64,000 nucleotides of DNA from Dehalococcoidia bacterium (GTDB lineage: Bacteria > Chloroflexota > Dehalococcoidia > Lucifugimonadales > Australimonadaceae). A program made the position numbers and the translations under genes. Positions 1,609-33,958 of this stretch are shown here, piece by piece (positions within the stretch are counted from its first letter, which is position 1; every line of letters begins with the position of its first letter). The notes beneath the pieces were generated by a model. The model saw only the letters and a program-made list of their open reading frames with translations, was not told the DNA's origin and made no database searches. The stretch covers positions 132,630 to 196,629 of the forward strand of contig CBDFHJ010000007.1 in the NCBI GenBank assembly GCA_965247635.1. The letters are read 5' to 3'.

Positions 1609-1853
1609 CAGCCCTCGGTTTGCTCGAAATCAGCATCCCGGCTGTCTTGACACTCCGACGACTGTAGCTGGTAGAGTCCTACCGTCTTAATGGGCACCAT
1701 CCGTGCCCGTAGAACGCGACGGAGAGGAGCGCCGCCAGGCGCTCTCCCGCGCAAATGTTAAGACCGGGCTTAGCCCGATCTCGACGTAAGGACATCGGCT
1801 ATGGGTGACCTGTTAGCAACCAGCAAAAGTGGGACACATTGGGAGCCGAGAGA

Positions 1854-2841: not shown

Positions 2842-3245
2842 CCGCTGGTACCGGTGGCGTCCTGGGGCATGGGGATGACCGTTTTTTTGAGACGGTACGC
2901 CTCCAGCGACAGATCGGCCACTAGCTCCTTGAGTTCCCCGTTCTCTCGCTTGAGTTGCCCTACCTCATGCTGAGTGGCGTCCCGAACCGAGTCACGGGTC
3001 AACCTCTCCTTGCCCGCCTCCATGAACTCTTTGGTCCACGAGTAGTAGGAGTGGGGCTTGATCCCCTCCCGCCGGCACAGGTCGTTGACTGTGACCTCGC
3101 GGCGGAAGCCCTCCAGAACAATTCGGATCTTCTCTTCGGGGGTGTACTTACGTCGGGCAGCCGCCTTCACTGTGCGGACGAAAGACCTGGTCTGCTCGCT
3201 TCGTTCCTCGGCGGCCTCTGCTTTGCTTACTTCTAGTTGGGACAC
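2838..3245 (-). CDS. IS3-family transposase OrfA (HTH)
   Basis: 135 aa, identical to the orfA of copies 2 and 3 except for 2 substitutions. It has a leucine-zipper-like C-terminus and ends in an ATGA overlap with orfB. Confidence 0.85.
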   Translation of the reverse strand: MSQLEVSKAEAAEERSEQTRSFVRTVKAAARRKYTPEEKIRIVLEGFRREVTVNDLCRREGIKPHSYYSWTKEFMEAGKERLTRDSVRDATQHEVGQLKRENGELKELVADLSLEAYRLKKTVIPMPQDATGTSG

Positions 3246-3404
3246 ATCTGCTCCTTTCTGTGGGTAGCTCTACCCTCATTTCAGGAGCTCACACCACCCT
3301 CCGACTCTCGGGTTTTCCTACCCTTATATGTGTCCCATTATCGCTGACGGTCTACAGTTCAGGTCCTGTAGCGTCGTTTCCATCGCAACTCTCTTTGGTC
3401 TAGG

Positions 3405-11309: not shown

Positions 11310-12920
11310 CTAGCTGTACCTAGTTGGGGCCTCAGTTCGAATCCCCCACTGTGGGCCGGACTTGACGAAATCGAGAACCGAGGCCGATTCCCGCTTCACA
11401 CCGTCCTTTGGCATGGGAACGGTGTACGTCAGCGTCGCCTCGTCTCCCACCACCTCGATGCCCTCCACGAAGTTGCGGATGAGGACCTTGCGCTCGGGGA
11501 ACGTCCCCTCTTGCAAGAACTCCCGGAAGTCCGCCACGTACCCCTTGATCTCCTCGGTGGTCGGAAGCTCAACCCTCCGCTGCTCAAGCTGGGTCTCGGC
11601 GTCCTCTCTCGCAGCCTCCAGTTGCTCCTCACGGTGCCTCAGCGAGAAGATTCGGGGCGACAGGACCTCCAACGTCAACTCGCTCGTTTCAAGGGCCTCG
11701 TAGAGCCGCTCAAGACGCTTCCTCACGTCCCTTAGCTCGGCCTCGATGACCTCCAGCCTGCCGGACAGCTCACCGGCCATTGCGTCGATCTCTTCCGCCA
11801 CCAGCGTCACCAGCTCCACGATGGTCTCCTCGGTGAGGATTCGCTCCCGTATCTTCTCAACAATGAAGTCCTCCACCCTGGGGGCGTTCAGGTAGCGGGC
11901 GCTGCACGTCCCCGCTCCCTCCCGGAACAATGTCCCGCAGACGTAGTAGGCGAACTGGCCGCTCTTGGCCCCCTGGCCACTGTAGGGCCTGCCGCACACC
12001 CCGCACTTGAGCAAGCCGCTCAGCAGGAACTTGCTACCCACTCTACCGGGCCTCTGCACCTTCGGGGCACGGTCCCGCATCGCCTGCTGCACGGCGTCGA
12101 ACAGCTCCCTCGACACCAGCGCGGGCCATGCTCCCTCCACTCGCACCGGGTCCTGGGCCTTCTCTACCTTGGTGGTTCTGCCCCAGACGGCGGTTCCGGT
12201 GTAGGCTTCGTTGGTCAGCAGGTAGTGGAGTCCTCCCTTGTACCAGCGCTTTCCCCGGTTGGTGATGCCCCGGTCGTTCAGGGTCCTGCATATCTCCTTG
12301 AGGCCGTAGCCGCTGAGCGAACTCTCGAATATCTCCTTCACCACCGGAGCGGTGGCGGGGTCAACTTCCAGCGTGGGACGCTCCTTCATCCCGTCGCTGA
12401 CCTTCACCCGCCTGTAGCCGAAGGGGGCCTTGGAGCCGAGGAAGAAGCCTCTCGAAGCGGCCTCCCTCATTCCCCGGACAACGTCCTGCGCAAGATTTTC
12501 GCTGTAAAACTCATCGATGCTCCCGATGATGGCCTCCATCAGCTTGCCCGTGGGGGAGTCGTCGGCGTGTTCGGTGATGGAGACCACCTTGACACCCTTT
12601 CTCCTCAGCATGGACTTGAAAGCCACGGCGTGCTCCCGCTTGCGGGTGAACCGGCTGAACTTCCAGACGAGGATGACCTCAAAGGGAGCCTTCGGCTGGC
12701 TGCCCTCCTCGATCATCTCTCTGAACTGGGGTCTGTCCGCCACGCGTCCGCTCCCGGCCTCGTCCACGTACTCGCGGGCGACGGAGTAGCCGTTGGCTCT
12801 GGCGTAGTCCTTGAGCGCTCGCAACTGGGCGGACACGGACAGGTCCACGTCCTGCCGGTCGCTGGATACCCTGGCGTAGAGCGCCGCAGGTGTGAGCGGC
12901 TGTAGGTGCTTCTTCTTCAT
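11310..12920 (-). CDS. large serine recombinase (resolvase domain + recombinase domain + zinc ribbon + coiled coil), copy 1
   Basis: 536 aa. The catalytic N-terminus is ALYARVSSDRQD. The recombinase domain contains GLHYLLTNEAYTG, the zinc ribbon is CGVCGRPY...YYVCG, and there is a long C-terminal coiled coil. Confidence 0.9.
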   Translation of the reverse strand: MKKKHLQPLTPAALYARVSSDRQDVDLSVSAQLRALKDYARANGYSVAREYVDEAGSGRVADRPQFREMIEEGSQPKAPFEVILVWKFSRFTRKREHAVAFKSMLRRKGVKVVSITEHADDSPTGKLMEAIIGSIDEFYSENLAQDVVRGMREAASRGFFLGSKAPFGYRRVKVSDGMKERPTLEVDPATAPVVKEIFESSLSGYGLKEICRTLNDRGITNRGKRWYKGGLHYLLTNEAYTGTAVWGRTTKVEKAQDPVRVEGAWPALVSRELFDAVQQAMRDRAPKVQRPGRVGSKFLLSGLLKCGVCGRPYSGQGAKSGQFAYYVCGTLFREGAGTCSARYLNAPRVEDFIVEKIRERILTEETIVELVTLVAEEIDAMAGELSGRLEVIEAELRDVRKRLERLYEALETSELTLEVLSPRIFSLRHREEQLEAAREDAETQLEQRRVELPTTEEIKGYVADFREFLQEGTFPERKVLIRNFVEGIEVVGDEATLTYTVPMPKDGVKRESASVLDFVKSGPQWGIRTEAPTRYS

Positions 12921-13005
12921 GCTGTCCTCCTTGAGTGGATTGGTTAATCGTCAAGAGATTCGAAATGTGCCCCAGACAATGGCATACTTGTCCAAGATGC
13001 TTGGC

Positions 13006-13641
13006 TTACTCCCTCCCCGGGGGCAACGGGTCCTGCTCACTGGCCAACGCCTGAGACTCCCGAATAGACAGTCCTCGACTGGTCTTGTCTCCCCAAAGGC
13101 TCTTGACGTAGTTGAGCACCTCGACAATCTCTTCGTGGCTGAGCTGGTCCCCAAATGCAGGCATACCGCTCTTGAAGCTCGGATAGCTCGGGTCTTCCAG
13201 TAGCTTCCCGCCCTTGCTGACGATTCGATACAGGAGACCGTCTGAATGGTGCCACGTGTGGCCGTCGCCGTTGAGCGGTGGCGCTGGAAGCGTGCCGTCA
13301 GCCTTTTTGATATGCCAGTCGGGCTGACCTTCGGCAGCGACTCCATGACACACAGCGCAGTTCGCGACGAACAGCTCTCGCCCTGTTGAAGAGGCCAGAG
13401 GAGGAGAGTAGACTCTGCTGTCTGTTGGACTGTTGTCTCCGTTTGGTGAGGGAGAGCAGGCGGTCAACAAGACGAAGACCAGCATCAATGTGGCGAAAGC
13501 GGCGGCGTAGCTGCCTAACCCCACAACGATGGCGTGCAGGCAACAAACTACCGGCACGGTTCCCCGCTTGTGTATCACCGCACCAAACCTGCTGGGGACA
13601 CTGTAGCTTCTGGCTGATTGTGGATGTTTCTTCACACTCAA
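13006..13641 (-). CDS. membrane-anchored c-type cytochrome
   Basis: 211 aa with a TM anchor, a haem-binding CAVCH motif and a distal SGMPAF Met-ligand context. The start is non-ATG (TTG 13641 or GTG 13635), directly after the vapC stop. Confidence 0.6.
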   Translation of the reverse strand: MSVKKHPQSARSYSVPSRFGAVIHKRGTVPVVCCLHAIVVGLGSYAAAFATLMLVFVLLTACSPSPNGDNSPTDSRVYSPPLASSTGRELFVANCAVCHGVAAEGQPDWHIKKADGTLPAPPLNGDGHTWHHSDGLLYRIVSKGGKLLEDPSYPSFKSGMPAFGDQLSHEEIVEVLNYVKSLWGDKTSRGLSIRESQALASEQDPLPPGRE

Positions 13642-14064
13642 CTATCTGTCCACCAGTTCGATGCGATCGCCGTAACGTCGAAAGTCTGAGACGTTGAACG
13701 TCAATAGCCTGCGCTCCCCATGCGCCAGCATGGTTGCGACGATGTTGGCGTCGTGAATCTGCCGTCCCCCCGCGGGAATCTCTCGACACAGCCCCACGAG
13801 CGATTCGGTCACCACGGGACCGTCCTCGAGTATCTCGAAGCTGCCTATCAGCCTGCTCACGTCATCCAGGGCATCCTCACGGGTGATGGCCACCGTCCAG
13901 GTCTGCGGTCGAGTGACGACGGCCAGGTACTCTCGTATCACCTGACGGCTGATCCTTAGCGGTTCGGGGTCTCGAAAAGCGCGTTCCAAGCTGGCCCTGG
14001 CCGCGTCGTGGTCCGGCGCGCTGGGGACACGGGACTTCACCAGCACGTTCGTGTCTATGAACAT
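13642..14064 (-). CDS. vapC: PIN-domain ribonuclease toxin (VapC-like)
   Basis: The start was set at MFIDTNVLV (ATG 14064). The PIN acidic residues occur in the contexts DTN, EY, D..I and FNVSDF. It lies 7 nt after the upstream antitoxin-like ORF. Confidence 0.75.
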   Translation of the reverse strand: MFIDTNVLVKSRVPSAPDHDAARASLERAFRDPEPLRISRQVIREYLAVVTRPQTWTVAITREDALDDVSRLIGSFEILEDGPVVTESLVGLCREIPAGGRQIHDANIVATMLAHGERRLLTFNVSDFRRYGDRIELVDR

Positions 14065-14071
14065 GGCGGGA

Positions 14072-14476
14072 CTAAACCCTCTCCTCGTAGAGATCCTCAC
14101 GTCTGAGGCTCAGACCTTCCGGCCACACCGCGGTGGGGTGGACGGGCCACGCCTCGTCGAGAGAGAGCCTGGGTATGGGCTTCGTGTGCGTTCGCCGGAA
14201 CAGCAGCATCTCGCCATCCATATCGACCTCCGCCGTCTCCCAGCCGGCGACGCTCCAGGCAAGGGCGTGGCTGTGGCCATTGCCGCCTCTCTGATTTCCC
14301 CACCAGGGCCGGTGCAGCCGTGCGGACGGAGGCAGCTCGAATCCGATGACTGCCTCGACCTCGTTGAAGGAGGTCCTCCACTCCTGCACCTGAAGACTGG
14401 TCAGGTACGTGTACAGTCTCTGGTACTTGCCCCGAATCACCATCTCCAGGTACTTGTCCTTCTGGTCTACGGCCAT
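14072..14476 (-). CDS. chimeric antitoxin-like protein (defence-island-type N-terminal domain + VapB-like C-terminal tail)
   Basis: 134 aa. The N-terminal pattern YQRLYTYL...SFNEVEAVIGFELPPSARLHRPWWGN...HALAWSVAGW recurs in hypothetical proteins near R-M loci. The C-terminal WPEGLSLRREDLYEER resembles the toxin-binding tails of PIN antitoxins. Confidence 0.5.
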   Translation of the reverse strand: MAVDQKDKYLEMVIRGKYQRLYTYLTSLQVQEWRTSFNEVEAVIGFELPPSARLHRPWWGNQRGGNGHSHALAWSVAGWETAEVDMDGEMLLFRRTHTKPIPRLSLDEAWPVHPTAVWPEGLSLRREDLYEERV

Positions 14477-14530
14477 GTCGTGCCTCCTTCGTTTTAGCTT
14501 GCCCTAACCGGAGGGTAGACGTCGACATAT

Positions 14531-14559
14531 ATTGTAGTGAGTTAGTGACTCTAACACAA
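14531..14559 (-). promoter_or_regulatory. predicted sigma70-type promoter of the antitoxin-vapC-cytochrome operon
   Basis: On the minus strand this reads TTGTGT-N17-TACAAT. A GTAGACGTCGAC palindrome lies just downstream, and AAGGAGG precedes the ATG at 14476. Confidence 0.4.
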
Positions 14560-14993
14560 GCGCCTAGACAACGGCAACGGACCGGGTAGGGCTCACACGC
14601 ACAGCCCCCCCTCAGAAGGCGTGAGATGCCAGGGGTCGCTGGCGGTGTCACACCCGTGTACAGGAGATCGCACGGGGCGGCAAGTTGCAGTTCGGGCGAT
14701 TCCGTAGCTGAAATCGGGGTGAATGGGGCATCCTGCTAAATCGGAGCGAGCAATTTGATTCCGGTACTCGTTCCACCCCTACTGGACAGTCGCAGCTACG
14801 AAAGTGGACAAAATGGCAGTGGCGTTCGCGGACGTGATTGGAACATGGACTTTGGACTGCGTGATGGGGCATCGGCAGCTACGGATTGGGGAAAGTGGAA
14901 CATCGACGCGTAAGAGAGGCGGATGGGGTTGGAAGAACCGGAGGTCCGGGTGTTAGCAACCAGCAAAAGTGGGACACATTGGGAGCCGAGAGA

Positions 14994-15980
14994 TCAGGGG
15001 CTGGATGGAGGTCTGGCGAGCTCCCTGAGGGCCCTGTTGTAGCGTCGTCGCCGTTCGGTGGTTTGAGCCTTCACCTCCTTCCTGCGTTGTAGGATCTCTT
15101 GCCGTCTTCCCTTGAGCACGTCTGATGGTGTCACGTTGCCCAGAGCCTTGTGATAGCGCCGGTAGTTGTAGTAGCTGACGAAGGCCGCGATAGCGGCCTC
15201 AAGGTCGGCGGGCAACTCATAAGGCACCTGGTTGACGTCCCGTTTGATGGTCTGGTGGTAGCGCTCCAGCTTCCCGTTGGTCTGAGGGTGGAAAGGAGTT
15301 GCTAGGATGTGCTTGATGCCAACCATCCCCAGGTAGTCCCTGAATGCTCTTGAGACATAGCCTGGACCGTTGTCACTCAGCAGCCTGGTGCGGTCTGTGA
15401 CTGGAACTTGGTCCATGCTGGTCGTGTCCACAGCATCCTGGACCACCTCGATGAAGGAGTCGGCCGTCATATCTTGCTGAAGCCTGTGAGCCAGGATGAA
15501 GCGGGAGTAGTCGTCCATAACGGTGACCAGGTAGTAGTAGCCCCACCCAACCACCCTGAAGTATGAGGCATCGGTGGCCCACATCTGGTGAGGTCCTGTG
15601 GTCTTGAGGTGGTACTCCTTCCCCGCGGCCAACCGCATCTCAGGCCTCTTCACTAGGCCCTCCCTGCCCAGGATACGGTAGACGCTGGACTCTGAGACTG
15701 AGAAGCCCTGGTTGTCGGTGATCCCCGCGGCCAGCTGACGGCAGCTCAGCTCTGGCATCTCCCTGGCTGATAACAGGACTGAGCGTTCTTCCTGAATAGT
15801 GAGACGGTTCCATGGTGGCTGATCGCCTCCTGGTCGGTCCTCAAGTCCTTGTTGGTCTTGGCGTCTGAGCCACCGGTAGTAGGTGCTCTTAGGGATGCCC
15901 AGCTCTCTGAGGACCTTTCGCTTGGGGAGGGGAGACGAGGATACTTTGGTAACTACCTCTGCCTTCTCCGGGGCGCTCAT
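14994..15980 (-). CDS. IS3-family transposase OrfB (DDE integrase core)
   Basis: 328 aa with the rve-type motifs WATDASYF, VMDDYSR, LLSDNGPGY and QTNGKLERYH. Confidence 0.9.
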   Translation of the reverse strand: MSAPEKAEVVTKVSSSPLPKRKVLRELGIPKSTYYRWLRRQDQQGLEDRPGGDQPPWNRLTIQEERSVLLSAREMPELSCRQLAAGITDNQGFSVSESSVYRILGREGLVKRPEMRLAAGKEYHLKTTGPHQMWATDASYFRVVGWGYYYLVTVMDDYSRFILAHRLQQDMTADSFIEVVQDAVDTTSMDQVPVTDRTRLLSDNGPGYVSRAFRDYLGMVGIKHILATPFHPQTNGKLERYHQTIKRDVNQVPYELPADLEAAIAAFVSYYNYRRYHKALGNVTPSDVLKGRRQEILQRRKEVKAQTTERRRRYNRALRELARPPSSP

Positions 15981-16384
15981 CCGCTGGTACCGGTGGCGTC
16001 CTGGGGCATGGGGATGGCCGTTTTTTTGAGACGGTACGCCTCCAGCGACAGATCGGCCACTAGCTCCTTGAGTTCCCCGTTCTCTCGCTTGAGTTGCCCT
16101 ACCTCATGCTGAGTGGCGTCCCGAACCGAGTCACGGGTCAACCTCTCCTTGCCCGCCTCCATGAACTCTTTGGTCCACGAGTAGTAGGAGTGGGGCTTGA
16201 TCCCCTCCCGCCGGCACAGGTCGTTGGCTGTGACCTCGCGGCGGAAGCCCTCCAGAACAATTCGGATCTTCTCTTCGGGGGTGTACTTACGTCGGGCAGC
16301 CGCCTTCACTGTGCGGACGAAAGACCTGGTCTGCTCGCTTCGTTCCTCGGCGGCCTCTGCTTTGCTTACTTCTAATTGGGACAC
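15977..16384 (-). CDS. IS3-family transposase OrfA
   Basis: 135 aa with an HTH plus a leucine zipper. It has an ATGA overlap with orfB, and a -1 shift at the A7 run would fuse OrfA to OrfB. Confidence 0.9.
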   Translation of the reverse strand: MSQLEVSKAEAAEERSEQTRSFVRTVKAAARRKYTPEEKIRIVLEGFRREVTANDLCRREGIKPHSYYSWTKEFMEAGKERLTRDSVRDATQHEVGQLKRENGELKELVADLSLEAYRLKKTAIPMPQDATGTSG

Positions 16385-16495
16385 ATCTGCTCCTTTCTGT
16401 GGGTAGCTCTACCCTCATTTCAGGAGCTCACACCACCCTCCGACTCTCGGGTTTTCCTACCCTTATATGTGTCCCATTATCGCTGACGGTCTACA

Positions 16496-18544
16496 CTTGT
16501 CCACGTACATGGTGTGCAGCAGCGGCTCGTCGTAGCCGGTCTGGAACTTGTCCGCGCAGACCAGGAAGCGGTACGGCTCTTCTTGTATCTTGTCGGCTAT
16601 CAGGTTCGATGAGAAGCCGTTGAGGGACGCCTCGGTTACCTTCGTCCCTGCGTATTCGTGCTCACCGGAAAAGGCGACGATTGCCTGGTATGGACTCTTG
16701 CGCTCTGCCAAGTAGTCTTGGATAGCGTGGTAGTAGCGGATGGCGCGCTCGATACTCCCTGTCACCACCATGGCCCTGGCCTGCCCGCCGACCTTCTGAA
16801 GGCCGATGACCTGCTCGTGGAAGTGGTCCACCATGATCTCGGACTTGAGGCGGATGGCATGATCGTTGTTCTCAACATAGCGCCTCAGCTTCTTCGCCGC
16901 ACGCTTCATATCGAACTCCGGGTCCGCCTCCACCGTCTTGACCAGCCGGTAGTAGCTTTCCACCGGTGTGTAGTGCTTCAGCACGTCTACTATGAACCCT
17001 TCCTCGGTTGCCTGCTTCATGGTGTAGGAGTGGTACGGGACGTGCCTGACCTTGTCTCCCTCCGGGATAGGCCGGCCGAAGATCTCCAGCGTCCGATTCT
17101 TTGGCGTGGCCGTGAATGCGAAGTAGCTGGCGTTGGGCAGCAGCTTCTTGCTCTCGATGATTCTGTTGATCTTGTCCTCGGCGGTCTCTTCTTCCTCTTC
17201 TGCACCGGCCTGTCCCAGGGCCATGGACACCGATGCGGAGGTGCGGCCTCCTTGGCTGGAGTGGGCCTCGTCGATGATGATTCCGAAGCTGTGATTACGG
17301 TGTTCGTCCCCGATGGCGTCCAGAATGAAGGGAAACTTCTGCACGGTGGTGATGACAACCTTCTTCCCATCCTGAAGGAAGGTGCGCAAGTCCTTGGAGT
17401 TCTGGGCATGGCCCACCACGGAGCCTACCTGGGCAAACTGCCGAATAGTATCCCTGATCTGCCTATCGAGAATCCTCCGGTCCGTGACTACTATGATCGA
17501 ATCGAAGAGGGGCTTGCCGCTAACCTCGAACCTAATTAGCTGGTGGGCAAGCCAAGCGATGGAGTTGGACTTGCCGCTTCCCGGAGAGTGTTGGACGAGG
17601 TACCGCTTGCCAACTCCTTCGGCCGGCACATCCGTTAGGAGCCGCCGCACTACTTCCAACTGGTGGTAGCGTGGCCAAATTTGCACCCGCTTCTTACGCC
17701 CGGTTTTGTCATCCTTGGTTTCGACAACTTGGGCGTAGTTCTCAATGATGTCGGTGAGGCCTTCTCGGGTAAGGACCTGCTTCCACAGGTAATCGGTCTT
17801 GATTCCGTTGGGATTGGGAGGATTGCCCGCGCCGTCGTTCCACCCCTTGTTGAAAGGCAGGAACCAGGAACTCTTTCCCTGTAGGTGAGTACAGAACTGC
17901 ACCTCGTGATCGTCGACGGCAAAGTGGACAAGGCAGCGCCCCAGCTCGAAGAGCTTTTCGCGAGGGTTGCGGTCTTCCCTGTACTGCTTAACGGCGTCCG
18001 CTACCGTCTGCTTGGTCAGACTGTTCTTCAGCTCGAAGGTGGCCACAGGCAGCCCGTTGATGAAGAGGCACAGGTCCAAGGCAAGCTGGGTGTTGTCCTG
18101 GCTGTAGTGGAGCTGCCTAGTCACGCTGAATCGGTTCTGCCCGTACTGGACCCCGGCCTTCTCGTTCCCCGGCGACGGTGTGCCGTACATCAGGTCAATC
18201 TGGTGCGGACCGTGCTTGACGCCCTTACGTAGCACGTCAATGGTCCCTCGCTTTGCGACCTCCCCTTGCAGCCGGGCCAGGAACTTGCGCCGCGTTGGGC
18301 TGCCCTGGCCCAGGTCCAGTGGCTCGGCGGCAACGGGCTGGGTGTCGTGGAGGAAGGCGGAGAGTTGGGCCAGGTCTATGCAGTACTCCCGGTCGTAATC
18401 TTGTGGGTCTCCGCCGATCCAGCCTACGCCGTAATTGGCCGGACGTTCTGCCACAGCGCCTCCCTGGGCAGGCTCACACGCATGGCCGGCCATGGCGATA
18501 CAAATGAGCCGCTCAAGTCCCTTCTCAGTGGTATCTGTGGTCAC
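16496..18544 (-). pseudogene. hsdR: Type I restriction enzyme R subunit, 3'-truncated by IS copy 2
   Basis: 683 native codons with a GTG start. It has a PD-(D/E)xK context (LDLCLFINGLPVATFELKN), Walker A (SPGSGKSNS), DEAH (IIIDEAHSS) and QTGYDEPLLHTMYVDK. The reading frame then runs into the IS inverted repeat and stops after 10 codons. Motif VI and the C-terminal domain are absent. Confidence 0.85.
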
Positions 18545-18545
18545 G

Positions 18546-18881
18546 CTATCCCTCTTCCATCTCTTGGATCGGGACTTCTCTCAGTTCACCGGGGCGTATT
18601 TCGTTAATGACAGTGCGAATCTCCTCTATACGCGGCTGGACATAGGGCCATGCCGTGGACAGTAGGACGACAATCGCCAGTCGCCTATCTGTGAGGTTCT
18701 GTTGGTATCGCATATTCTGGTCAGTGGTGATGAGGATTTCGTATCCCTCCTGCTCGGCCTCCTCGACTAGGTCCCCATTACCGAGTCCTGACCATCCTCG
18801 CTCCGCTGCCGTATCCACCGAGTGTCCGTGCAGATGTTCTCGAAGCGGCCGAGGCGTTCCCTGGTCCAATAGAATCCTCAC
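18546..18881 (-). CDS. DUF5615-like (PIN/Mut7-C-like) putative toxin
   Basis: The GTG start at 18881 overlaps the DUF433 stop (GTGA). The sequence VRILLDQGTP...GDLVEEAEQEGYEILITTDQNM matches the DUF5615 pattern. The stop lies 1 nt before the hsdR start. Confidence 0.6.
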   Translation of the reverse strand: MRILLDQGTPRPLREHLHGHSVDTAAERGWSGLGNGDLVEEAEQEGYEILITTDQNMRYQQNLTDRRLAIVVLLSTAWPYVQPRIEEIRTVINEIRPGELREVPIQEMEEG

Positions 18882-19105
18882 GGTTCTACGGAAACCTTGA
18901 CGGACTTCGCCGCGTATTCGAGAACAGCTCTGACCTTCCATTCCTCCACGCCCTCGAACCAATCGAGAAACTGTTCTATGGTAGCGCCGCTCTCAAGGTT
19001 CTCGAAAAGGGCGGATACCGGCACTCTGGTTCCGGTGAACACCCAGGCCCCACTCAGCCTGCCGGGCACGCTCTCGACTGCCGTGCACTTTCCCCAGTCC
19101 GTCAT
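18878..19105 (-). CDS. DUF433-like putative antitoxin
   Basis: The ATG at 19105 overlaps the hsdS stop (ATGA). It has the motif GAWVFTGTRVPVSALFENLESGATIEQFL, which is typical of DUF433. Confidence 0.6.
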   Translation of the reverse strand: MTDWGKCTAVESVPGRLSGAWVFTGTRVPVSALFENLESGATIEQFLDWFEGVEEWKVRAVLEYAAKSVKVSVEP

Positions 19106-20562
19106 ACGGTCACCTCGCTTTCCATTGCCAACTCTTCTGGCCATTCGTCGGGGTGGTGCAGGTCTTCGGCCACACTGTCGGCCAATGGGCCGCCCTCGTC
19201 CATAGGCTCTTCATCGTCGGCTTCGTCCGGCAGCAGCGCCGCCGCCTCGCTCACGTCCAGCTTGCCCGTCACCACGTCGGAGATGAGCCGTGTGCGGTAC
19301 TCCTGAAGCAGTTCGATTTGGCGGCGGGCGCGGGCGATGGCGGCGTAGATGATCGCAGTGGCCTCATCAAGATGCTGGACGATAGCGGCCTGTTCGGAGA
19401 GGGGTGGGATAGGTAGGTGCAAGCTAGTTAGCGTTTCGCGGTTAATCTTTGGCATCGCAACTCTGTCGGATTCAAGGACCGACCAAGCTGTGAAACCTTC
19501 CGAGAGCATCAGCCAGAACAGGTAAACATTTAGGAGTGAATTGCGCGGACGTAGCGGGTACATGTCAGCGCTACATAGGCAGTCGGCCGGGGCCACTAAC
19601 ACTTTTGCCAGTGCCGGGCGAATCTTGCTGTAGATCACATCACCGGCTAGGCAAAAGTACTTACCGCTAATTGCTGCCTGTTCGGAAGCTGTCTCTCTAT
19701 ACAGGAGGCGGCCTGTCTTTGACTCGAGGTGATTTGGAGCGATGAGCAGCATTGATGAATACGGTTCAATTTCTGGATCAACCTGCCCTTCGGCTATGTC
19801 TACTTGGCGGGAAAACCGGGTAGTCTCCCAATGCTCCGGCACGTCGCCGAGCCACTCGACGCCGGAGGGCTTGAGGCGGACGTTGGGGTCAAGGCCGCGT
19901 GTGACGGCCTGGTTGACGATGGCCTGCTTCTCCTCTTCCAGCACCGCGATGAGCTTCCGCTTCGCGCTGACGTACCGCCGGATGCGCCGGTCTACGTGGT
20001 CCAGGTAGCGCACGATTGAGGCCTGTTCGGAGAGATGGGGAAGGGACACCCGAAAATACTTGAGCTGGGCACTGTGGACGTGCATGATGGTGATGCCGCG
20101 CCCCATCAGGGACTTCTGGGTTTGAGCCGAATGACAGTCCAACGAGTAGCCCGCAAACTTCGGCTCCATGGGAACTGTTGGCCGGAAGATGATCAAGTCT
20201 CCACCACAGAAAACTTGGGTGTGCATCAAGTTGACTGCGGATTTGCCAATGTCCTCTATGGTCTCACCTGACGTAGGGAAGAGAACGTCGCCTCTATTGA
20301 TTGGCGTATATGCACTAGCCCTCGCTAGCGAAACATAACTCCGTGTCCGCCTAATGAAGTGGGTGTGAGTCGTGTAAAGGTCCCCATACCGAACACAGGG
20401 TATCCCATCGGGGACCTCGTCATCCTTCGTTCCTCCAGAGCCTTTGGAGAAGACGCCAATCCTTCCAAGTTGGACAACTTCCCAGTGCGCCGGCACGTCG
20501 CCGAGCCAGGGGACAGCAGAGGGCTTGTAGGCGGAGTAGCGGTAGATAGCGTTCGCGTACAC
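19102..20562 (-). CDS. hsdS: Type I R-M specificity subunit
   Basis: 486 aa with two target-recognition halves, each followed by a conserved helix (LSEQASIVRYLD...; LSEQAAIVQHLD...). GC is lower in the TRDs. The start is GTG. Confidence 0.85.
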   Translation of the reverse strand: MYANAIYRYSAYKPSAVPWLGDVPAHWEVVQLGRIGVFSKGSGGTKDDEVPDGIPCVRYGDLYTTHTHFIRRTRSYVSLARASAYTPINRGDVLFPTSGETIEDIGKSAVNLMHTQVFCGGDLIIFRPTVPMEPKFAGYSLDCHSAQTQKSLMGRGITIMHVHSAQLKYFRVSLPHLSEQASIVRYLDHVDRRIRRYVSAKRKLIAVLEEEKQAIVNQAVTRGLDPNVRLKPSGVEWLGDVPEHWETTRFSRQVDIAEGQVDPEIEPYSSMLLIAPNHLESKTGRLLYRETASEQAAISGKYFCLAGDVIYSKIRPALAKVLVAPADCLCSADMYPLRPRNSLLNVYLFWLMLSEGFTAWSVLESDRVAMPKINRETLTSLHLPIPPLSEQAAIVQHLDEATAIIYAAIARARRQIELLQEYRTRLISDVVTGKLDVSEAAALLPDEADDEEPMDEGGPLADSVAEDLHHPDEWPEELAMESEVTV

Positions 20563-20563
20563 G

Positions 20564-21259
20564 TTAGTTTGCCCCCGAGGTTAGATCAAACCCGATAGGG
20601 TTCCTTTGAATCAGGTCAAGTGCATGATCAATCGCGGCAGCCACCACGATGCCAGTGTTATCGTAGTACGTGAAAGGTGTCTCGCTTTCGCCAACGTAGA
20701 TTGGTTTGGGCTCATCGTGATAGCCAGAAACGATACCTATAGCAGTAAGTTCATTGCTCCGGTCGTTCACTATCTGGCAAACTACGGGTCCGCCGGAAAA
20801 CCCAGGGTTATTGTGGCCGTCCAGTAATAGTGTTTTCACTTCACCTACTTGAAATGCGGAAAGTATCCCCTTCTTTACCAATGGTATGGGAAAGTTCCTG
20901 TTTAAGTTCCCTCCGTCATTGGTAAGGTCGTAAGGAAATCCCAAGAAGTAAACGTCCTGACTGAGCACTATACCAGCGGTTCCTGTGGGCAATGGGTGCG
21001 TGGGTGAAATTTGCACAGGAGGAGCTAACACTGTCACGTCGATGTCTCCTTGTCCATGCCCCACCAACTCAACGGCAAGGCTCTTCCAAGTGTTTTCATG
21101 CTGTATTTGCAGCAAATTGGGCCCGGCAATGGAGGACACAAAATGGCGGGCGGTAATTATGTATTGTCTGCAATCGACGTCTACCGTAAAGCAAGTGCCC
21201 GTGGACCCACCGTACTGGATGCGAAAGGTACGTTGCAGTATGTTCGTAGTCATTAGCAT
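20564..21259 (-). CDS. cytoplasmic trypsin-fold (S1/Trypsin_2-like) serine protease embedded in the hsd operon
   Basis: 231 aa with no signal peptide. The triad contexts are YIITARHF, GDIDVTVL and NNPGFSGGPVV. It lies 10 nt after the hsdM stop and 1 nt before the hsdS start. GC is visibly lower than in hsdM. Confidence 0.7.
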   Translation of the reverse strand: MLMTTNILQRTFRIQYGGSTGTCFTVDVDCRQYIITARHFVSSIAGPNLLQIQHENTWKSLAVELVGHGQGDIDVTVLAPPVQISPTHPLPTGTAGIVLSQDVYFLGFPYDLTNDGGNLNRNFPIPLVKKGILSAFQVGEVKTLLLDGHNNPGFSGGPVVCQIVNDRSNELTAIGIVSGYHDEPKPIYVGESETPFTYYDNTGIVVAAAIDHALDLIQRNPIGFDLTSGAN

Positions 21260-21269
21260 GTTGCTTTAC

Positions 21270-23387
21270 CTAGCCTTTGACAATCTCCGCCAGCAACCCC
21301 TCCGTCTCCCGCTCCAATGCCAGGATGTCGGCCCGTATCTCCTCCAATGGACGCAGGGGCTGCGGCTTGTAGAAGTGGCGGGTGAAGCTGATTTCGTAGC
21401 CAACCTTGACGCTGCTCGCCACATACCAGGCGTCGGTTGCGTAGGGCAGCACCTCGCGACGGATGAAGGCTTCGACGCCTCCCTCCTCCAGCAACGGCAC
21501 CTGCTCCGTGTCCCGGAGTTCCGGGTCGGGCTCGTACTCCACCACTGTGCTCTGACCGTCCAGGGCCGCTTCGATCAGTCCGCGGATCGGATCAGGTTCT
21601 ACCGCGCCTGGCTTGTTGGTCTTCTTGATGACTGGCGCGGCGGCCTCTTGGCGGGATGCCAACGCCGTCTGTAATAGGTTCTTCCGCTTGGCCGTCAACT
21701 TGACGCCATGCGCGGAGGCATCTGCCACAACGGCCTCCATGAATCGGTTGAAATCGGGGTGAGGTCCGGCGCCCAGTACTGCCGCCACCCGATCAATGAC
21801 GTAGGAGAGTGGCTCTTCCTTTGCGTCACCACAGACGGCCCGGAAGCGCTGGCGATGGTCCGGTGATAGATCGATGGTGAGCCGCAGCGGGCGCTCCACG
21901 GTGACCTTCAAGTAGCCGAAGGCCTCATTAAGGAAGATCTTGGACTGCTCCGTTTCCTCGAAAGCGAGGAACGCATCGCAGATGCGGCCGATGTCCTCGT
22001 CGGATACCTCGCAGTTCTTACTGCCAAGGTTCTTGCGAAGGGGCCTGTACCCCTGTGTGGCATCAATGAGCTGCAACTTGCCATGGCGATGCTCAGGCTT
22101 TCGGTTGCTGAGCACCCAGATGTAGGTGGCAATGCCGGTGTTGTAGAACATGTTCAGCGGGAGGGCGACGATGGCTTCCAGCCAGTCGTTCTCGATGATC
22201 CAACGACGGATGTTGCTCTCGCCCTGGCCGGCGTCGCCGGTGAAGAGGGAGCTGCCGTTGTGCACCTCCGCGATGCGGCTGCCCATCGGTGTGTCCCGCT
22301 TCATCTTGCTCAGCATGTTGGCCAGGAACATCATCTGGCCGTCGCTGGAGCGGGTGATGAGGGAGTAGTCCGGGTCGCCGCCGTGCTCCACGACGAAGCG
22401 CGGGTCCGTGATGTCGGACTTTCCGCCCATGCGTTCCAGGTCGCTCTTCCAGCTCTTGCCGTAAGGCGGATTGGAGAGCATGAAGTCGAACTCACGGGCT
22501 GGGAAGGCGTCGGCAGAGAGGGTGGAGCCGTATTGCATGTTGTCTGCCTCGCCGCCTTCTCCCTTCAAGATGAGGTCGGCCTTGCTGATGGCGTAGGTCT
22601 CAGGATTCACCTCCTGGCCGTACAGATGGACTGACGCCTCCTTGCCTTGTTCCCTGGACAGCTGCGTCAGCGTCTCTTCCGCTACCGTCAGCATCTCGCC
22701 TGTGCCGCACGCGCCGTCATAGACCAGGTAGGTGCCGGACCTGACCTCTTCGGCAACCGGCAGGAAGATGAGCCGTGCCATGAGTTGCACCACGTCCCTT
22801 GGAGTAAAGTGCTCCCCGGCTTCCTCGTTGTTCTCCTCGTTGAAGCGGCGTATGAGCTCTTCGAAGACCGTACCCATGCCGTGGTTGTCTAGGCCCTCCA
22901 GTCTGACGGAGCCGTCCCCGTTCAGCACGGGTACAGGGCTCAGGTTGATCGACTTGTCGAGGAACTTCTCCAGCAGGAACCCCAGCGCATGCGTCTCGAC
23001 CAGCCTGGGAATCTGGTTGCGGAACTCGAACTTCTCCAGGACCTCCTGGATGTTGGGCGAAAAGCCGTCGAGGTACGCCTCGAAGTCAGATCGCAACTGC
23101 TGTTGCCGCCCGCGTGAAGCAAGGTCGCGGAGCCGGAAGTCAGATGTGTTGTAGAAGGCCTGGTCGGAGGCCTGGCGCAGGGCGGCATCCTGATTCGTAA
23201 TGCCTGCGTCGTCTAGCTGGTCCTTCATGCGGAGAACAGCGTCCTTGGTCGGTTCCAGAACTGCGTCCAGGCGACGTATGACGGTCATGGGCAGGATGAC
23301 GTCGCGGTACTTGCCCCGGACGTAGACGTCCCGCAGCACGTCGTCGGCGATGCCCCATATAAAGCTGCTGATGTTCAGGTCGCTCAT
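21270..23387 (-). CDS. hsdM: Type I R-M N6-adenine DNA methyltransferase subunit (long form)
   Basis: 705 aa with an HsdM N-terminal domain, a SAM motif (YDGACGTGEML) and the catalytic MLSNPPYG. The conserved C-terminal tail is GYEISFTRHFY. Confidence 0.9.
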   Translation of the reverse strand: MSDLNISSFIWGIADDVLRDVYVRGKYRDVILPMTVIRRLDAVLEPTKDAVLRMKDQLDDAGITNQDAALRQASDQAFYNTSDFRLRDLASRGRQQQLRSDFEAYLDGFSPNIQEVLEKFEFRNQIPRLVETHALGFLLEKFLDKSINLSPVPVLNGDGSVRLEGLDNHGMGTVFEELIRRFNEENNEEAGEHFTPRDVVQLMARLIFLPVAEEVRSGTYLVYDGACGTGEMLTVAEETLTQLSREQGKEASVHLYGQEVNPETYAISKADLILKGEGGEADNMQYGSTLSADAFPAREFDFMLSNPPYGKSWKSDLERMGGKSDITDPRFVVEHGGDPDYSLITRSSDGQMMFLANMLSKMKRDTPMGSRIAEVHNGSSLFTGDAGQGESNIRRWIIENDWLEAIVALPLNMFYNTGIATYIWVLSNRKPEHRHGKLQLIDATQGYRPLRKNLGSKNCEVSDEDIGRICDAFLAFEETEQSKIFLNEAFGYLKVTVERPLRLTIDLSPDHRQRFRAVCGDAKEEPLSYVIDRVAAVLGAGPHPDFNRFMEAVVADASAHGVKLTAKRKNLLQTALASRQEAAAPVIKKTNKPGAVEPDPIRGLIEAALDGQSTVVEYEPDPELRDTEQVPLLEEGGVEAFIRREVLPYATDAWYVASSVKVGYEISFTRHFYKPQPLRPLEEIRADILALERETEGLLAEIVKG

Positions 23388-23737
23388 TGGTTCGCCATGC
23401 TCCGATAGGCTGCCTTGACTATCTGGTCAAGGGCAACGGCGGCTTCCTCGTTGAGGCGGGGGTCGGAGTGGAGACAGGACGAGATCACCGCGAGGGGCTC
23501 CGGCTCATTCTTGGCGGCGGCGCTCCTGACGAATCGGTCTACGTCCAGTCCCGACCACGCCGCCAAGGCTGCGAGACCGTTGACGTCAGGGTGTTTGCCT
23601 TGGGACATACGGCTCAAAGTGGAGGCGCTGATGCCGCACTCCTCCGCCACTTGCTTCCAAGTGCAATGGCGGGCCTGCCTCTCAGCGTCCAAAGCGGCGA
23701 AGAAGGCGCCGCCGTCGAACCTCGCTGTCTTGGCCAT
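23384..23737 (-). CDS. XRE-family HTH protein (possible controller of the R-M operon)
   Basis: 117 aa with the HTH TWKQVAEECGISASTLSRMSQG. It has an ATGA overlap with the hsdM start. Confidence 0.7.
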   Translation of the reverse strand: MAKTARFDGGAFFAALDAERQARHCTWKQVAEECGISASTLSRMSQGKHPDVNGLAALAAWSGLDVDRFVRSAAAKNEPEPLAVISSCLHSDPRLNEEAAVALDQIVKAAYRSMANQ

Positions 23738-23803
23738 TAGCCGCTCCTTCGTGGTTCACATCCGAGATAGTCATCACCGACAATGGAATGAATCGCCTAT
23801 TCG

Positions 23804-23832
23804 ATTATCGCAACCACATGATATGATTGCAA
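23804..23832 (-). promoter_or_regulatory. predicted promoter of the XRE-hsdM operon
   Basis: On the minus strand this reads TTGCAA-N17-GATAAT, with the direct repeat TTGCAAT/TTGCGAT. GAAGGAG precedes the ATG at 23737. Confidence 0.4.
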
Positions 23833-24155
23833 TAGCCGCCAGGGACTGAGGAGGTCCAACCCTCTACATTTCCGTGGTGAAGGGAGGCAGGAGGATCGAC
23901 AGGTGTCGAGCAGTACAGCTACTACGGCCGTGAGGCGTTGAATCTCAGCCTTCTACCCTGCCATGTAGGTAATCGAGCGATTAGGGTGGGTTCACAGCAC
24001 AAGCCGCATCTCAAAGATGGTTCTGCCTACCGTCAACTTAGGCCCACCAAACTGGACAAAATCAAGAACCTTCACATTGAGATTCAGGCTAGCAGCTTGA
24101 CATGGACCTTGGGCTAGGAATGCCCTGATGATCCCAAGAGAGGAAGCCGCGACGT

Positions 24156-24776
24156 ATGACGGGATGCCCCGCCAACAACTCTCCCGTAGCCCGCGCATTG
24201 GGGGACGACTTTATCAATCTACACACGGCGGTGCGTAAGCACTACTCTGAGCCAACGGTGGTTTTGAGTGGGGTCATGAACAGTATCAATGTTAAGACGG
24301 CAATCAGGCCAGTAGCATTGCTCTCATACATGCTGTTCCGTGCCCCGGTCCCGCACAACGGAGAGAATGTTGAATTCACCGTGCACAGCCGAGTCGATGG
24401 TTCGGGCGTGATGCATTGGTTTAGGACCTTCTTCGGCAACGACGGCTTTCGTAGGGACGTGACGTTCTCTTCTCACATGGTATTTTCAGACGACCATAGA
24501 ATCATCGAAACTACGAGATGGGGTCTGGGGGTAGAGTCGGACTTGCGAGTTGACGACGTAGGAAGCTTGGTCTATGACATCCGGAAGTACGTGTTAAGGG
24601 TACCTTTTCTTGGGCTGATTATTGGGTTCCCCACCTGGGTCTCGCCTTTTGGAGGTGGCTGCACCACCGAAACCGGAGAGAGTGAAGCCAGTTTCAGTGT
24701 CAACTTTGAGATGACCCATCCGGTATTCGGACGAACTATCGGCTACTCGGGTAGGTGTCGGATGTCGTCCTCTTGA
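24156..24776 (+). CDS. DUF4166-like protein
   Basis: 206 aa. The N-terminal LGDDFINLHTAVRKHY matches the DUF4166 signature. It lies in a lower-GC region. Confidence 0.4.
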   Translation: MTGCPANNSPVARALGDDFINLHTAVRKHYSEPTVVLSGVMNSINVKTAIRPVALLSYMLFRAPVPHNGENVEFTVHSRVDGSGVMHWFRTFFGNDGFRRDVTFSSHMVFSDDHRIIETTRWGLGVESDLRVDDVGSLVYDIRKYVLRVPFLGLIIGFPTWVSPFGGGCTTETGESEASFSVNFEMTHPVFGRTIGYSGRCRMSSS

Positions 24777-25751: not shown

Positions 25752-26579
25752 TTAGGCCGCCGCGGACTCGGCAGGCGCTCTGTCAAAGAACTGGTCCGGC
25801 GTCATTCCCCCAAGGCTCGAATGGGGCCGTCCGGCATTGTAAAACTCGAAGTACCGCCCGAGTCCAGTTCTGGCTTCCGGGACCGATTCGTAGGCTCTCA
25901 GGTACACCTCCTCGTACTTGACGCTCTTCCACAGCCGTTCGACGAACACATTATCCTTCCAGCTTCCCTTCCCGTCCATGCTGATCTGGATCCCATTGGC
26001 TTTCAGCAGGCCGGTGAAGGCGTCACTTGTGAACTGGCTTCCCTGATCTGTGTTGAATATCTCCGGCGCGCCGTGGCGTCCCAGGGATTCTTCGAGCGCC
26101 TCCACGCAGAAGTCTGCGTCCATTGTGACCGATACCCGCCAGGCCAGCACCTTGCGGCTATGCCAGTCCATCACTGCGGCTAGGTACACGAACCCCCTGG
26201 CCATCGGAATGTACGTGATATCCATTGCCCACACCTGGTTGGGCCTGCTCACCTCAAGCCCGCGCAGCAGGTACGGATACACCGTATGGCCGGGCCGTCG
26301 CCGGCTGGTGTTGGGCTTGCGGTACAGCGCCTCGATGCCCATCCGCCGCATCAGTGTGGCGATGTGCCTACGCCCGGAGGAGAGTCCCTCCTGGCGGAGC
26401 AGGCCTCGCATCATCCTACTGCCTGCAAACGGATACTCAAGGTGCAGCTCATCGATGCGGCGCATCAGTCCGAGACCGGCTTCGCCCACCGGCCGTGGCC
26501 GGTAGTAGATGCTCCCGCGGCTGATGCCCACTGCCTTTGCCTGGCGGGCGAGAGGCAGCTTGTGATCACGGTCGATCAT
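25752..26579 (-). CDS. IS3-family transposase OrfB (DDE)
   Basis: 275 aa with WAMDITYI, VMDWHSRKV, FNTDQGSQF and rve-type motifs. Confidence 0.85.
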   Translation of the reverse strand: MIDRDHKLPLARQAKAVGISRGSIYYRPRPVGEAGLGLMRRIDELHLEYPFAGSRMMRGLLRQEGLSSGRRHIATLMRRMGIEALYRKPNTSRRRPGHTVYPYLLRGLEVSRPNQVWAMDITYIPMARGFVYLAAVMDWHSRKVLAWRVSVTMDADFCVEALEESLGRHGAPEIFNTDQGSQFTSDAFTGLLKANGIQISMDGKGSWKDNVFVERLWKSVKYEEVYLRAYESVPEARTGLGRYFEFYNAGRPHSSLGGMTPDQFFDRAPAESAAA

Positions 26580-26881
26580 CGCCTTGCGCCCGGCAATCCC
26601 GCCTTCGTGAGCGCGGCCTCTAAAAAATCGTTCTCCAACGCAAGCTCACCGATCTTAGCGTGAAGGACCTTCATATCTACCGGCTTTTCAGCCTGCCCTG
26701 TCCCGGCGCCAAATAACTGCGCCGCCCGATCCAGCAACTGGGTCTTCCATTGCGTGATCTGGTTCGGGTGCACATCGAACTGGCTTGCCAGCTCCGAAAG
26801 TGTCCGGTCGCCGCGTACTGCGGCAAGAGCCACCTTCGCCTTGAACTCTGCCGAGTGGTTACGGCGGGGTCGTCTCCTCAT
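26576..26881 (-). CDS. IS3-family transposase OrfA
   Basis: 101 aa with the motifs [14 protein letters not shown] and LASQFDVHPNQITQWK. Confidence 0.85.
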   Translation of the reverse strand: MRRRPRRNHSAEFKAKVALAAVRGDRTLSELASQFDVHPNQITQWKTQLLDRAAQLFGAGTGQAEKPVDMKVLHAKIGELALENDFLEAALTKAGLPGARR

Positions 26882-31934: not shown

Positions 31935-32429
31935 TGCAGTGAGGTGGACCCCAAAATTCGGACAGGTGGCTAAGAGAGAGTCCCGCTCCTAAAATAGGAC
32001 GGAAAGAAGGAGCAGGACATGAATCAAACGTGTAAGAAGCACAGCCCAGTCTTCAAGGCCAAAGTGGCTTTGGCCGCGCTCCAGGGGGAGCACACGATTG
32101 CAGAGCTGGCCAGCCGGTTTGAAGTCCACCCGAGCCAGATCCATGCCTGGAAGAAGGCCTTGACTCAGGGGGCGCCGCACCTCTTTGGAAATGGTGCTGG
32201 ACGCCAGGAGAAGGACCAAGAGGTCCTCACTGCCCAGCTCTACCAACAGATTGGGCAGCTCAAGGTGGAACGGGATTTTTTGTCACGGAGCTTCGGGTTG
32301 TGAGCCGGTCCCAACGCCGGGCCATGATTGACCGAGAAGAACCGAAGCTGTCTCTGGTGCGCCAGTGCGCCTTGCTGGGTATCAGCCGCTCCTCGTTGTA
32401 CTACCTGCCAACCGAGGCCGGCGCCGAGG
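31935..32429 (+). mobile_element. 5' remnant of a third IS3-family element, truncated by insertion of IS copy 3
   Basis: orfA is intact. After a TTTTTTG site (32276-32282), the orfB N-terminus (MIDREEPKLSLVRQCALLGISRSSLYYLP) parallels OrfB of 25752-26579 and ends exactly at the IS copy 3 terminus. The left boundary is approximate. Confidence 0.7.
32019..32303 (+). CDS. IS3-family transposase OrfA (of the truncated element)
   Basis: 94 aa. The sequence [39 protein letters not shown] is homologous to the 26576-26881 product. Confidence 0.8.
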
Positions 32430-32540
32430 TGTAGACCGTCAGCGATAATGGGACACATATAAGGGTAGGAAAACCCGAGAGTCGGAGGGTGGTGTGAGCT
32501 CCTGAAATGAGGGTAGAGCTACCCACAGAAAGGAGCAGAT

Positions 32541-32948
32541 GTGTCCCAACTAGAAGTAAGCAAAGCAGAGGCCGCCGAGGAACGAAGCGAGCAGACCAGG
32601 TCTTTCGTCCGCACAGTGAAGGCGGCTGCCCGACGTAAGTACACCCCCGAAGAGAAGATCCGAATTGTTCTGGAGGGCTTCCGCCGCGAGGTCACAGCCA
32701 ACGACCTGTGCCGGCGGGAGGGGATCAAGCCCCACTCCTACTACTCGTGGACCAAAGAGTTCATGGAGGCGGGCAAGGAGAGGTTGACCCGTGACTCGGT
32801 TCGGGACGCCACTCAGCATGAGGTAGGGCAACTCAAGCGAGAGAACGGGGAACTCAAGGAGCTAGTGGCCGATCTGTCGCTGGAGGCGTACCGTCTCAAA
32901 AAAACGGCCATCCCCATGCCCCAGGACGCCACCGGTACCAGCGGATGA
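32541..32948 (+). CDS. IS3-family transposase OrfA
   Basis: 135 aa, identical to OrfA of copy 2. Confidence 0.9.
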   Translation: MSQLEVSKAEAAEERSEQTRSFVRTVKAAARRKYTPEEKIRIVLEGFRREVTANDLCRREGIKPHSYYSWTKEFMEAGKERLTRDSVRDATQHEVGQLKRENGELKELVADLSLEAYRLKKTAIPMPQDATGTSG

Positions 32949-33880: not shown

Positions 33881-33958
33881 CGCTACAACAGGGCCCTCAG
33901 GGAGCTCGCCAGACCTCCATCCAGCCCCTGATCTCTCGGCTCCCAATGTGTCCCACTT

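Follow-up and report, generated by a model that had tools for sequence, protein, structure and literature searches.

A seven-gene operon on the minus strand (16463-23737) was analysed in a stretch of 64,000 nucleotides from a Dehalococcoidia bacterium (GenBank assembly GCA_965247635.1, contig CBDFHJ010000007.1, positions 132,630 to 196,629 of the forward strand). The whole stretch is called the window below, and positions refer to it unless a locus handle is given. Consecutive open reading frames (ORFs) of the operon encode an XRE-family protein, HsdM, a protease, HsdS, a DUF433 protein, a PIN-like protein and HsdR. The locus is probably a mobile Type I restriction-modification (RM) operon in which the two inter-subunit junctions act as cargo slots and the passengers are independent add-ons. 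The hsdM/hsdS slot held an HtrA-like protease without PDZ domain, the hsdS/hsdR slot held the DUF433/PIN-like pair, and the XRE gene led the operon.

Cargo at the junctions between hsd genes

The comparison set comprised 80 loci with orthologous HsdM (62-74% identity), and a junction was counted as occupied when it contained >600 nt of other genes. Homologues of the protease, DUF433, PIN-like or XRE proteins were carried by none of the 80 orthologous loci. Other cargo was present at 39 of 66 hsdM/hsdS junctions (59%) and at 25 of 50 hsdS/hsdR junctions (50%). Cargo in the hsdM/hsdS slot included GmrSD (12), Hypoth_Ymh, DUF5655, TIR, Abi_2, Fic, Mrr, KwaB, DUF4062 and others; cargo in the hsdS/hsdR slot included Schlafen-AlbA_2/HATPase_c_4 (6), DarT plus Macro (3-4), Zeta toxin, nucleotidyltransferases, PIN, DUF4411, Fic and PD-(D/E)XK. 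The hsd backbone of the window belongs to an Hsd family in which inserted genes occupy over half of the hsdM/hsdS and half of the hsdS/hsdR junctions.

The preliminary description of this DNA had read the tight coupling of the genes as fixed stoichiometry of the passengers with the Hsd subunits, which was not supported, given the absence of the passengers from the 80 orthologous operons and the diversity of the cargo in the same slots. Nor did the passengers behave as integral parts of the enzyme, being gained and lost independently, with most protease homologues outside RM systems and with the R subunit broken by an insertion sequence (IS). The same description had called the locus a composite defence module rather than a random insertion; the part that stood was the recurrent defence island, and the part that fell was tight coupling as a sign of stoichiometric partnership. 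To call the locus a composite defence island is a reasonable choice, in line with the embedded-defence islands described in the literature.

The seven minus-strand ORFs and all six junctions were borne out by the ORF listing and by direct reading of the junctions, as were the domain identities of the seven ORFs by Pfam and PADLOC. ATGA overlaps joined XRE to hsdM (23384-23387) and hsdS to DUF433 (19102-19105), and a GTGA overlap joined DUF433 to the PIN-like gene (18878-18881). Gaps of 10 nt (21260-21269), 1 nt (position 20563) and 1 nt (position 18545) separated hsdM from the protease gene, the protease gene from hsdS, and the PIN-like gene from hsdR, respectively. Overlaps or very short gaps between stop and start codons are commonplace in bacterial operons, and taken by itself the junction pattern does not exceed what any set of co-transcribed genes would show. 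A scan of 14000-24600 against Rfam found no RNA family.

The gene order recurred in relatives, so it was not unique to the source genome. A locus from an ENA metagenome (L084) contained all seven genes in the same order and with the same junction style, including an intact HsdR of 1006 aa, and was flanked by a tyrosine integrase and a resolvase. Identities between L084 and the window were 77% for XRE, 88% for hsdM, 87% for the protease, 62% for hsdS, 63% for DUF433, 57% for the PIN-like gene and 83% for hsdR, and all six ORFs of the window other than hsdR were full length by comparison with L084. Five further loci kept the hsdM-protease-hsdS core (L015, a Dehalococcoidia metagenome-assembled genome (MAG), and L085, L086, L088 and L089; protease 62-86% identical). 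The DUF433-PIN pair lay directly ahead of hsdR in three loci (L084, L089 and L029, the last from Acidobacteriota); in L029 the protease was not embedded, with a homologue 2 kb off on the opposite strand. Loci L081-L083 were IS-flanked remnants with the protease and an hsdS fragment. This recurrence of gene order lies within one lineage.

Slot contents varied among these relatives. The hsdS/hsdR slot of L015 (6156-6428) held a BrnT ribonuclease toxin and no DUF433-PIN pair, that of L089 held an extra 256-aa gene, and in L088 a VapBC pair was inserted ahead of the protease. The BrnT gene in L015, the VapBC pair in L088 and the unembedded protease in L029 argue that each of the three passengers is gained and lost separately. 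Duplicated 3' fragments of hsdM were found directly upstream of cargo in L088 (6515-7992), L085 (8862-8981) and L015 (3904-3993), and a duplicated 3' fragment of hsdS was found directly upstream of cargo in L089 (6211-6399); the order in L088 was hsdM, VapBC, hsdM fragment (aa 600-705), protease. These duplications suggest that cassettes were exchanged when conserved gene ends recombined, and their position beside cargo indicates that the overlapping junctions were inherited with the cassettes; the overlaps thus give no evidence of selection for fixed stoichiometry.

The two genes in the hsdS/hsdR slot are predicted to form a pair of the type II toxin-antitoxin (TA) kind. The DUF433 protein matched PF04255 (51.6 bits; cut-off 23.6), and its ATG at 19105 was preceded by the Shine-Dalgarno sequence GAGGTGA. 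The PIN-like protein, as the 111-aa ORF from GTG 18881, matched DUF5615 (PF18480; 26.2 bits; cut-off 23.8), as did 4 of 5 PIN-like homologues, and D6, E27, T52, D54 and N56 were invariant in 5 homologues. The order of antitoxin then toxin was also present in L084, L089, L029 and L011. Single-sequence searches of the PDB with the DUF433 and PIN-like proteins found nothing significant. COG2442 (DUF433) was predicted as an antitoxin partner of PIN-family toxins by Makarova et al. 2009 (PMC2701414). Matelska et al. 2017 (PMC5499597) assigned COG4634 and PIN_10 to the Mut7-C group and had already reported transcriptional coupling of PIN-like TA pairs to subunits of Type I RM systems; one of their cases, from Belliella baltica, is a DUF433-PIN_10 pair accompanied by hsdM and hsdS. 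The pair in the window resembled these systems in domain composition, antitoxin-first order, overlapping genes and conserved acidic residues; it differed from the DUF433-PIN_10 pair in that its toxin fitted DUF5615 better than PIN_10 and that it lay exactly at the hsdS/hsdR junction of an ancestrally complete M-S-R operon.

The locus belongs to a known embedded-defence pattern, and its distinctive features are the protease at hsdM/hsdS and the two cargo modules behind an XRE leader. The RRDM island of enteropathogenic Escherichia coli (EPEC) has the order rptR-hsdM-hsdS-darT-darG-hsdR plus a downstream gene, and Zhang et al. 2025 (PMC12255303) suggested that its hsdS/hsdR junction is a recombination hotspot for defence systems. 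Both are seven-ORF, same-strand Type I RM operons led by a small regulator gene, both have a TA pair between hsdS and hsdR, and DarT plus Macro occupied that very slot in orthologues of the hsd system of the window. Palindromic sites of the regulator overlap the promoter in RRDM, and the boxes over the candidate promoter of the window are putative counterparts. The window differed from RRDM in its regulator (117-aa XRE-type helix-turn-helix (HTH) protein vs. 79-aa RptR), in its TA pair (DUF433/PIN-like vs. DarTG2), in the extra protease at the hsdM/hsdS junction and in the IS-truncated hsdR.

Type I RM, BREX and DISARM systems often contain embedded genes, mostly defence-related, and many defence families are mostly non-embedded with few embedded instances; most embedded systems tested worked alone, with a high experimental hit rate as defences, and PrrC is almost exclusively embedded in Type I loci (Payne et al. 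2024, bioRxiv 10.1101/2024.01.29.577857). The window was like the systems treated by guilt-by-embedding (Type I RM, BREX, DISARM, Hma) in the nesting of non-RM genes between subunit genes, in diverse and mostly defence-like cargo, and in a protease that is mostly non-embedded with few embedded instances. The words "trypsin", "peptidase" and "DUF433" were not found in the part of the supplementary text of Payne et al. that was searched.

The embedded protease

Pfam found only Trypsin_2 (41.7 bits) and Trypsin in the protease, and no PDZ domain. The residues H39, D74 and S155 (the last in GFSGGP) were unchanged across 26 homologues, in an alignment with 41 invariant columns. The AlphaFold2 model consisted of a single chymotrypsin-fold domain (predicted local distance difference test, pLDDT, 84.6), and its best folds were the protease domains of DegS, DegP and DegQ (Foldseek E ~2e-9; template modelling (TM) score ~0.6-0.7). 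Identity with HtrA proteases was ~20%, with a PDB profile E-value of ~1e-4. The protease shared the chymotrypsin fold and the H-D-S triad with HtrA, DegS and DegP (S1C), and differed from them in having no PDZ domain, no evident signal peptide and a length of ~230 aa. As modelled, it is HtrA-like in fold, is not a canonical HtrA, since its 231 aa contain no PDZ domain, and is predicted to be a stand-alone, cytoplasmic protein. No PADLOC candidate model (PDC or HEC) matched the protease, and none of the protease, DUF433 and PIN-like proteins was assigned to a family in an NCBIfam scan.

The protease family had >2500 database homologues (~230 aa each, ~50% identical across phyla); members were found in 304 of the species genomes scanned as well as on 16 IMG/VR contigs. 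When all ORFs located within 5 kb of the protease gene were clustered across 80 genomes, no conserved partner gene emerged, and Pfam and PADLOC scans of the immediate neighbours revealed no dominant family. The hsd genes were within 10 kb in only ~7 of 80 genomic protease loci, unlike the almost exclusive embedding of the PrrC type. About one in ten of 137 immediate neighbours matched PADLOC RM, DISARM or Pbe-type models, by a rough count. The protease lay between a type IIG-like methyltransferase and a PLD-helicase in L001, inside DUF499/DUF1156/SNF2 systems in L087 and L050/L051, beside a Type ISP enzyme in L058, beside a distant Type I HsdR in L018, and among TIR/ThsB genes in L188.

Two other neighbourhoods were recorded. 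In L002 (3715-10675) the protease was directly downstream of a TIR-TPR protein and beside an Eco57I-like methylase, and in L048 (7147-10654) it was directly downstream of an nSTAND1 NTPase; both are possible further sensor-effector pairings with the protease.

In an Abditibacteriaceae MAG (L011, 8277-9673) a protease homologue was directly followed by a DUF433/PIN-like pair with no RM system nearby; genes for a GSDH-like protein and a major facilitator superfamily transporter were located upstream. Here both cargo modules occur together a second time, independently of RM. The protease and DUF433 were adjacent in L011 and co-occurred in the window, L084 and L089. A role of the protease as dedicated degrader of the DUF433 antitoxin was considered and dropped, as the protease occurs without this TA pair in L015, L086 and L088.

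The protease gene of the window had a GC content of 49% and a third-position GC content (GC3) of 0.53 vs. 0.78-0.81 for hsdM and hsdR. Across the window, L084 (9001-9684) and L089 (3196-3906), the protease gene had ~49-50% GC and a GC3 of ~0.5 vs. 0.78-0.86 for hsdM/hsdR, and this gap persisted in the three operons, diverged to 63-87% protease identity. In 55 of 63 genomes the protease gene was richer in AT than the flanking DNA (median difference -7.2 points; p ~9e-10). A neighbour-joining tree, without support values, placed the hsd-embedded proteases in one clade together with the solitary L090 and the DUF499-embedded L087 proteins, and the remaining RM-associated proteases on separate branches. 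On these sequence features, the profile of the protease is that of a putative mobile single-gene cassette, and by guilt-by-embedding the protease is a candidate for defence. A literature search for a serine protease between hsdM and hsdS returned unrelated co-mentions only, such as the spl genes of Staphylococcus aureus, and no paper was found describing this protease family in RM operons.

Truncated hsdR, candidate promoter region and surroundings

HsdM matched PF12161 (HsdM_N, 78.9 bits), PF02384 (N6_Mtase, 180 bits) and, over its full length, the PADLOC model MTase_I PDLC03029 (822 bits). HsdS had Methylase_S in two stretches (Pfam) and full-length matches to PADLOC Specificity_I. The C-terminus of HsdS (19102-19240) formed a strongly acidic tail of ~45 residues, …DEADDEEPMDEGGPLADSVAEDLHHPDEWPEELAMESEVTV, whose last codons overlapped the start of DUF433. 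HsdR contained HSDR_N, a SWI2_SNF2/ResIII motor and a partial T1R_D3-like domain (Pfam).

The gene described as hsdR was correctly identified and was not intact, because an IS3-family element cuts off its last third. Only the first 683 of ~1006 residues were left: in a tblastn search with the intact 1006-aa HsdR of L084, query residues 1-683 were aligned, ending at base 16496, and the rest of HsdR was found neither beyond the IS nor across the whole window. The final HsdR residues, ...LLHTMYVDK, were followed by ten codons from the IS inverted repeat, and the ORF ended at 16463. The element was 1546 bp long, with HTH_Tnp_1 and rve domains and terminal inverted repeats, and occurred three times in the window (14951-16496, 1811-3356 and, inverted, 32429-33974; 99.5-100% identical, with 99.5-99.7% for the latter two). 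The IS3-family element that removed the last third of HsdR is active. The copy in hsdR had no matching target-site duplication, and the DNA on its far side did not continue hsdR. With the 3' third missing as well, an IS-mediated deletion or rearrangement is likely. Cut at residue 683 by the IS, the restriction arm is almost certainly inactive in the source genome. A promoter-like TGGACA-N16-GATAAT (10/12; 16476-16503, minus strand) straddled the hsdR/IS junction, its -35 falling in hsdR and its -10 in the inverted repeat of the IS; it may be a hybrid promoter into the transposase genes.

The upstream promoter candidate of the preliminary description, TTGCAA-N17-GATAAT, was recovered by a consensus scan at 23832-23804 (9/12 matches; TG-extended -10). 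The -35 TTGCAA sat within the perfect 8-bp palindrome ATTGCAAT (23826-23833), and a second, related box, GTTGCGAT (23807-23814), overlapped the -10 GATAAT. Upstream of the XRE gene of L084, ATTGCAAT and ATTGCTAA were present with the same start-to-start spacing of 20 nt and a diverged spacer. No minus-strand terminator-like site was detected within the operon. Promoter-like sites in the region (5) were not above the shuffled expectation (2.6 +/- 1.7), and one of them was inside the protease gene (21183-21156); this internal site was given no weight because the counts did not exceed expectation. The shuffled-level counts and the extra site in the protease gene mean that a single transcript is inferred.

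The XRE protein matched HTH_3 (24.4 bits; cut-off 23) and HTH_31 in Pfam and repressor families in PHROGs, its gene was preceded by a good Shine-Dalgarno sequence (GAAGGAG), and homologues were located upstream of hsdM in L084 (77%) and L015. The protein is presumed to be an autoregulator or controller of the operon, and autoregulation, by analogy with RptR or C proteins, is suggested by the boxes ATTGCAAT and GTTGCGAT over the -35 and -10 and by the spacing kept in L084.

Coordinates of the operon, its candidate promoter and the element that truncates it are collected in Table 1.

Table 1. Features of the hsd operon, its candidate promoter and the truncating IS element in the window.
Feature	Positions	Strand	Details
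Candidate promoter/operator	23804-23833	minus	consensus scan and sequence; -35 at 23827-23832, -10 at 23804-23809
XRE-family HTH gene	23384-23737	minus	117 aa; first in operon
hsdM, Type I methyltransferase subunit	21270-23387	minus	705 aa; HsdM_N and N6_Mtase
Protease, embedded cargo 1	20564-21259	minus	231 aa; Trypsin_2
hsdS, specificity subunit	19102-20562	minus	486 aa; two target-recognition domains, acidic C-terminal tail
DUF433 (COG2442) predicted antitoxin, cargo 2a	18878-19105	minus	75 aa; ATG at 19105
PIN-like DUF5615/COG4634 predicted toxin, Mut7-C-type, cargo 2b	18546-18881	minus	111 aa; GTG at 18881
hsdR', truncated restriction/translocase subunit	16497-18544 (ORF 16463-18544)	minus	residues 1-683 of ~1006
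IS3-family element truncating hsdR	14951-16496	minus	orfA 15977-16384, orfB 14994-15980

Near the operon, a large serine recombinase of 536 aa was encoded at 11310-12920. A VapC PIN toxin gene (13642-14100) overlapped a DUF7662 gene (14072-14476). Another IS3-type element, different from the one in hsdR, was present at 25752-26881. By their gene content, the surroundings (11310-14476 and 25752-26881) look like a mobile island.

Weighing the readings

In the most probable reading, with the passengers as independent add-ons, all genes would be co-transcribed from the promoter at 23804-23833, which the XRE protein would probably repress through the predicted boxes ATTGCAAT and GTTGCGAT. The XRE-controlled operon would then express an M2S1 methyltransferase, ancestrally with HsdR, plus two autonomous cargo modules that would work beside the enzyme and not as Hsd subunits. 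In the source genome the methyltransferase would still modify DNA, with restriction lost. The TA pair would stabilise the island and may give an abortive-infection back-up: on collapse of transcription or translation, decay of the labile DUF433 antitoxin would leave the PIN-like ribonuclease to cut RNA. The protease would be a candidate single-gene, second-line defence effector travelling as a mobile cassette. Recombination within the conserved 3' ends of hsdM and of hsdS would swap the cassettes, and the tight junctions would be inherited with the cassettes.

Several observations weigh against this reading. The only PADLOC matches of the protease to defence protease domains were weak (LmuA of Lamassu, 2.8e-6; RT-Protease_XI, ~1e-5), and unlike such RT-protease and Lamassu proteins the protease was not fused to a sensor. 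Many protease homologues were among housekeeping genes (L090, L011), and a non-defence role of the protease is possible. The association of the protease with the hsd backbone was stable in its clade over 62-87% identity, and in L026 and L029 a protease homologue was located 2-2.5 kb away from an orthologous hsd operon; this could mean that the two are functionally linked and do not simply reside together. The operator proposal draws on two sequences, those of the window and L084.

The foreign composition of the protease, the IS-flanked remnants L081-L083 and the truncated L085, the cut hsdR of the source genome, the many kinds of TA pair in one slot and the often solitary protease among housekeeping genes would also suit selfish hitch-hikers, that is, a TA pair and a protease that are mobile or addictive elements in recombination-prone junctions of a decaying locus, with no part in phage defence. 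This explanation is rather improbable, given the strong purifying selection on the protease, with its invariant columns and a triad intact across phyla, the full length of every ORF other than hsdR relative to L084, the enrichment of PADLOC defence proteins among the protease neighbours, and the high hit rate of embedded genes as defences (Payne et al. 2024).

A physical or functional coupling of the protease and/or the PIN-like toxin to the Hsd complex would take the form of a PrrC-like guard, latent until a phage inhibits the RM system, or of a dedicated protease that removes HsdR to alleviate restriction or that destroys phage anti-restriction proteins. PrrC in EcoprrI, the paradigm of an RM-guarding abortive-infection effector, and ClpXP-dependent proteolysis of HsdR are precedents. 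The hsdM-protease-hsdS junctions were stably inherited across the whole 62-87% range of protease identity, and protease homologues occurred independently in or next to several translocase-type modification systems and near hsd in L026 and L029. Like PrrC, the protease gene is nested between hsd genes, with co-expression inferred for the window; PrrC is an ABC-ATPase/nuclease confined almost entirely to Type I loci, whereas the protease has another fold and is mostly outside RM systems. Such coupling is unlikely in view of the lack of the protease in all 80 orthologous hsd operons, the many protease homologues without RM neighbour, the high diversity of cargo at the same slots, and the finding that most embedded systems tested worked alone (Payne et al. 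2024).

Least probable is that the protease is an unrecognised accessory of translocase-type RM systems (Type I, Type ISP/IIG, DISARM-like), for which it would guard the RM enzyme, by firing when a phage anti-restriction protein disables the enzyme or by destroying such inhibitors, or would alleviate restriction by degrading the R subunit; if that were so, the co-translation of the protease with HsdM and HsdS would have a functional meaning.

Read as a mobile operon with two cargo slots and independent passengers, the locus offers a clean, recurrent example for the emerging picture of Type I RM operons in which defence and TA cassettes are swapped by recombination. In the source genome the system is almost certainly restriction-dead and is probably a methylase plus cargo. 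The cargo includes a family that is seemingly missing from current defence catalogues, a widespread and strongly conserved stand-alone serine protease. Should this protease turn out to act in defence, it would be one of the rare protease effectors that consist of a single domain without a fused sensor.

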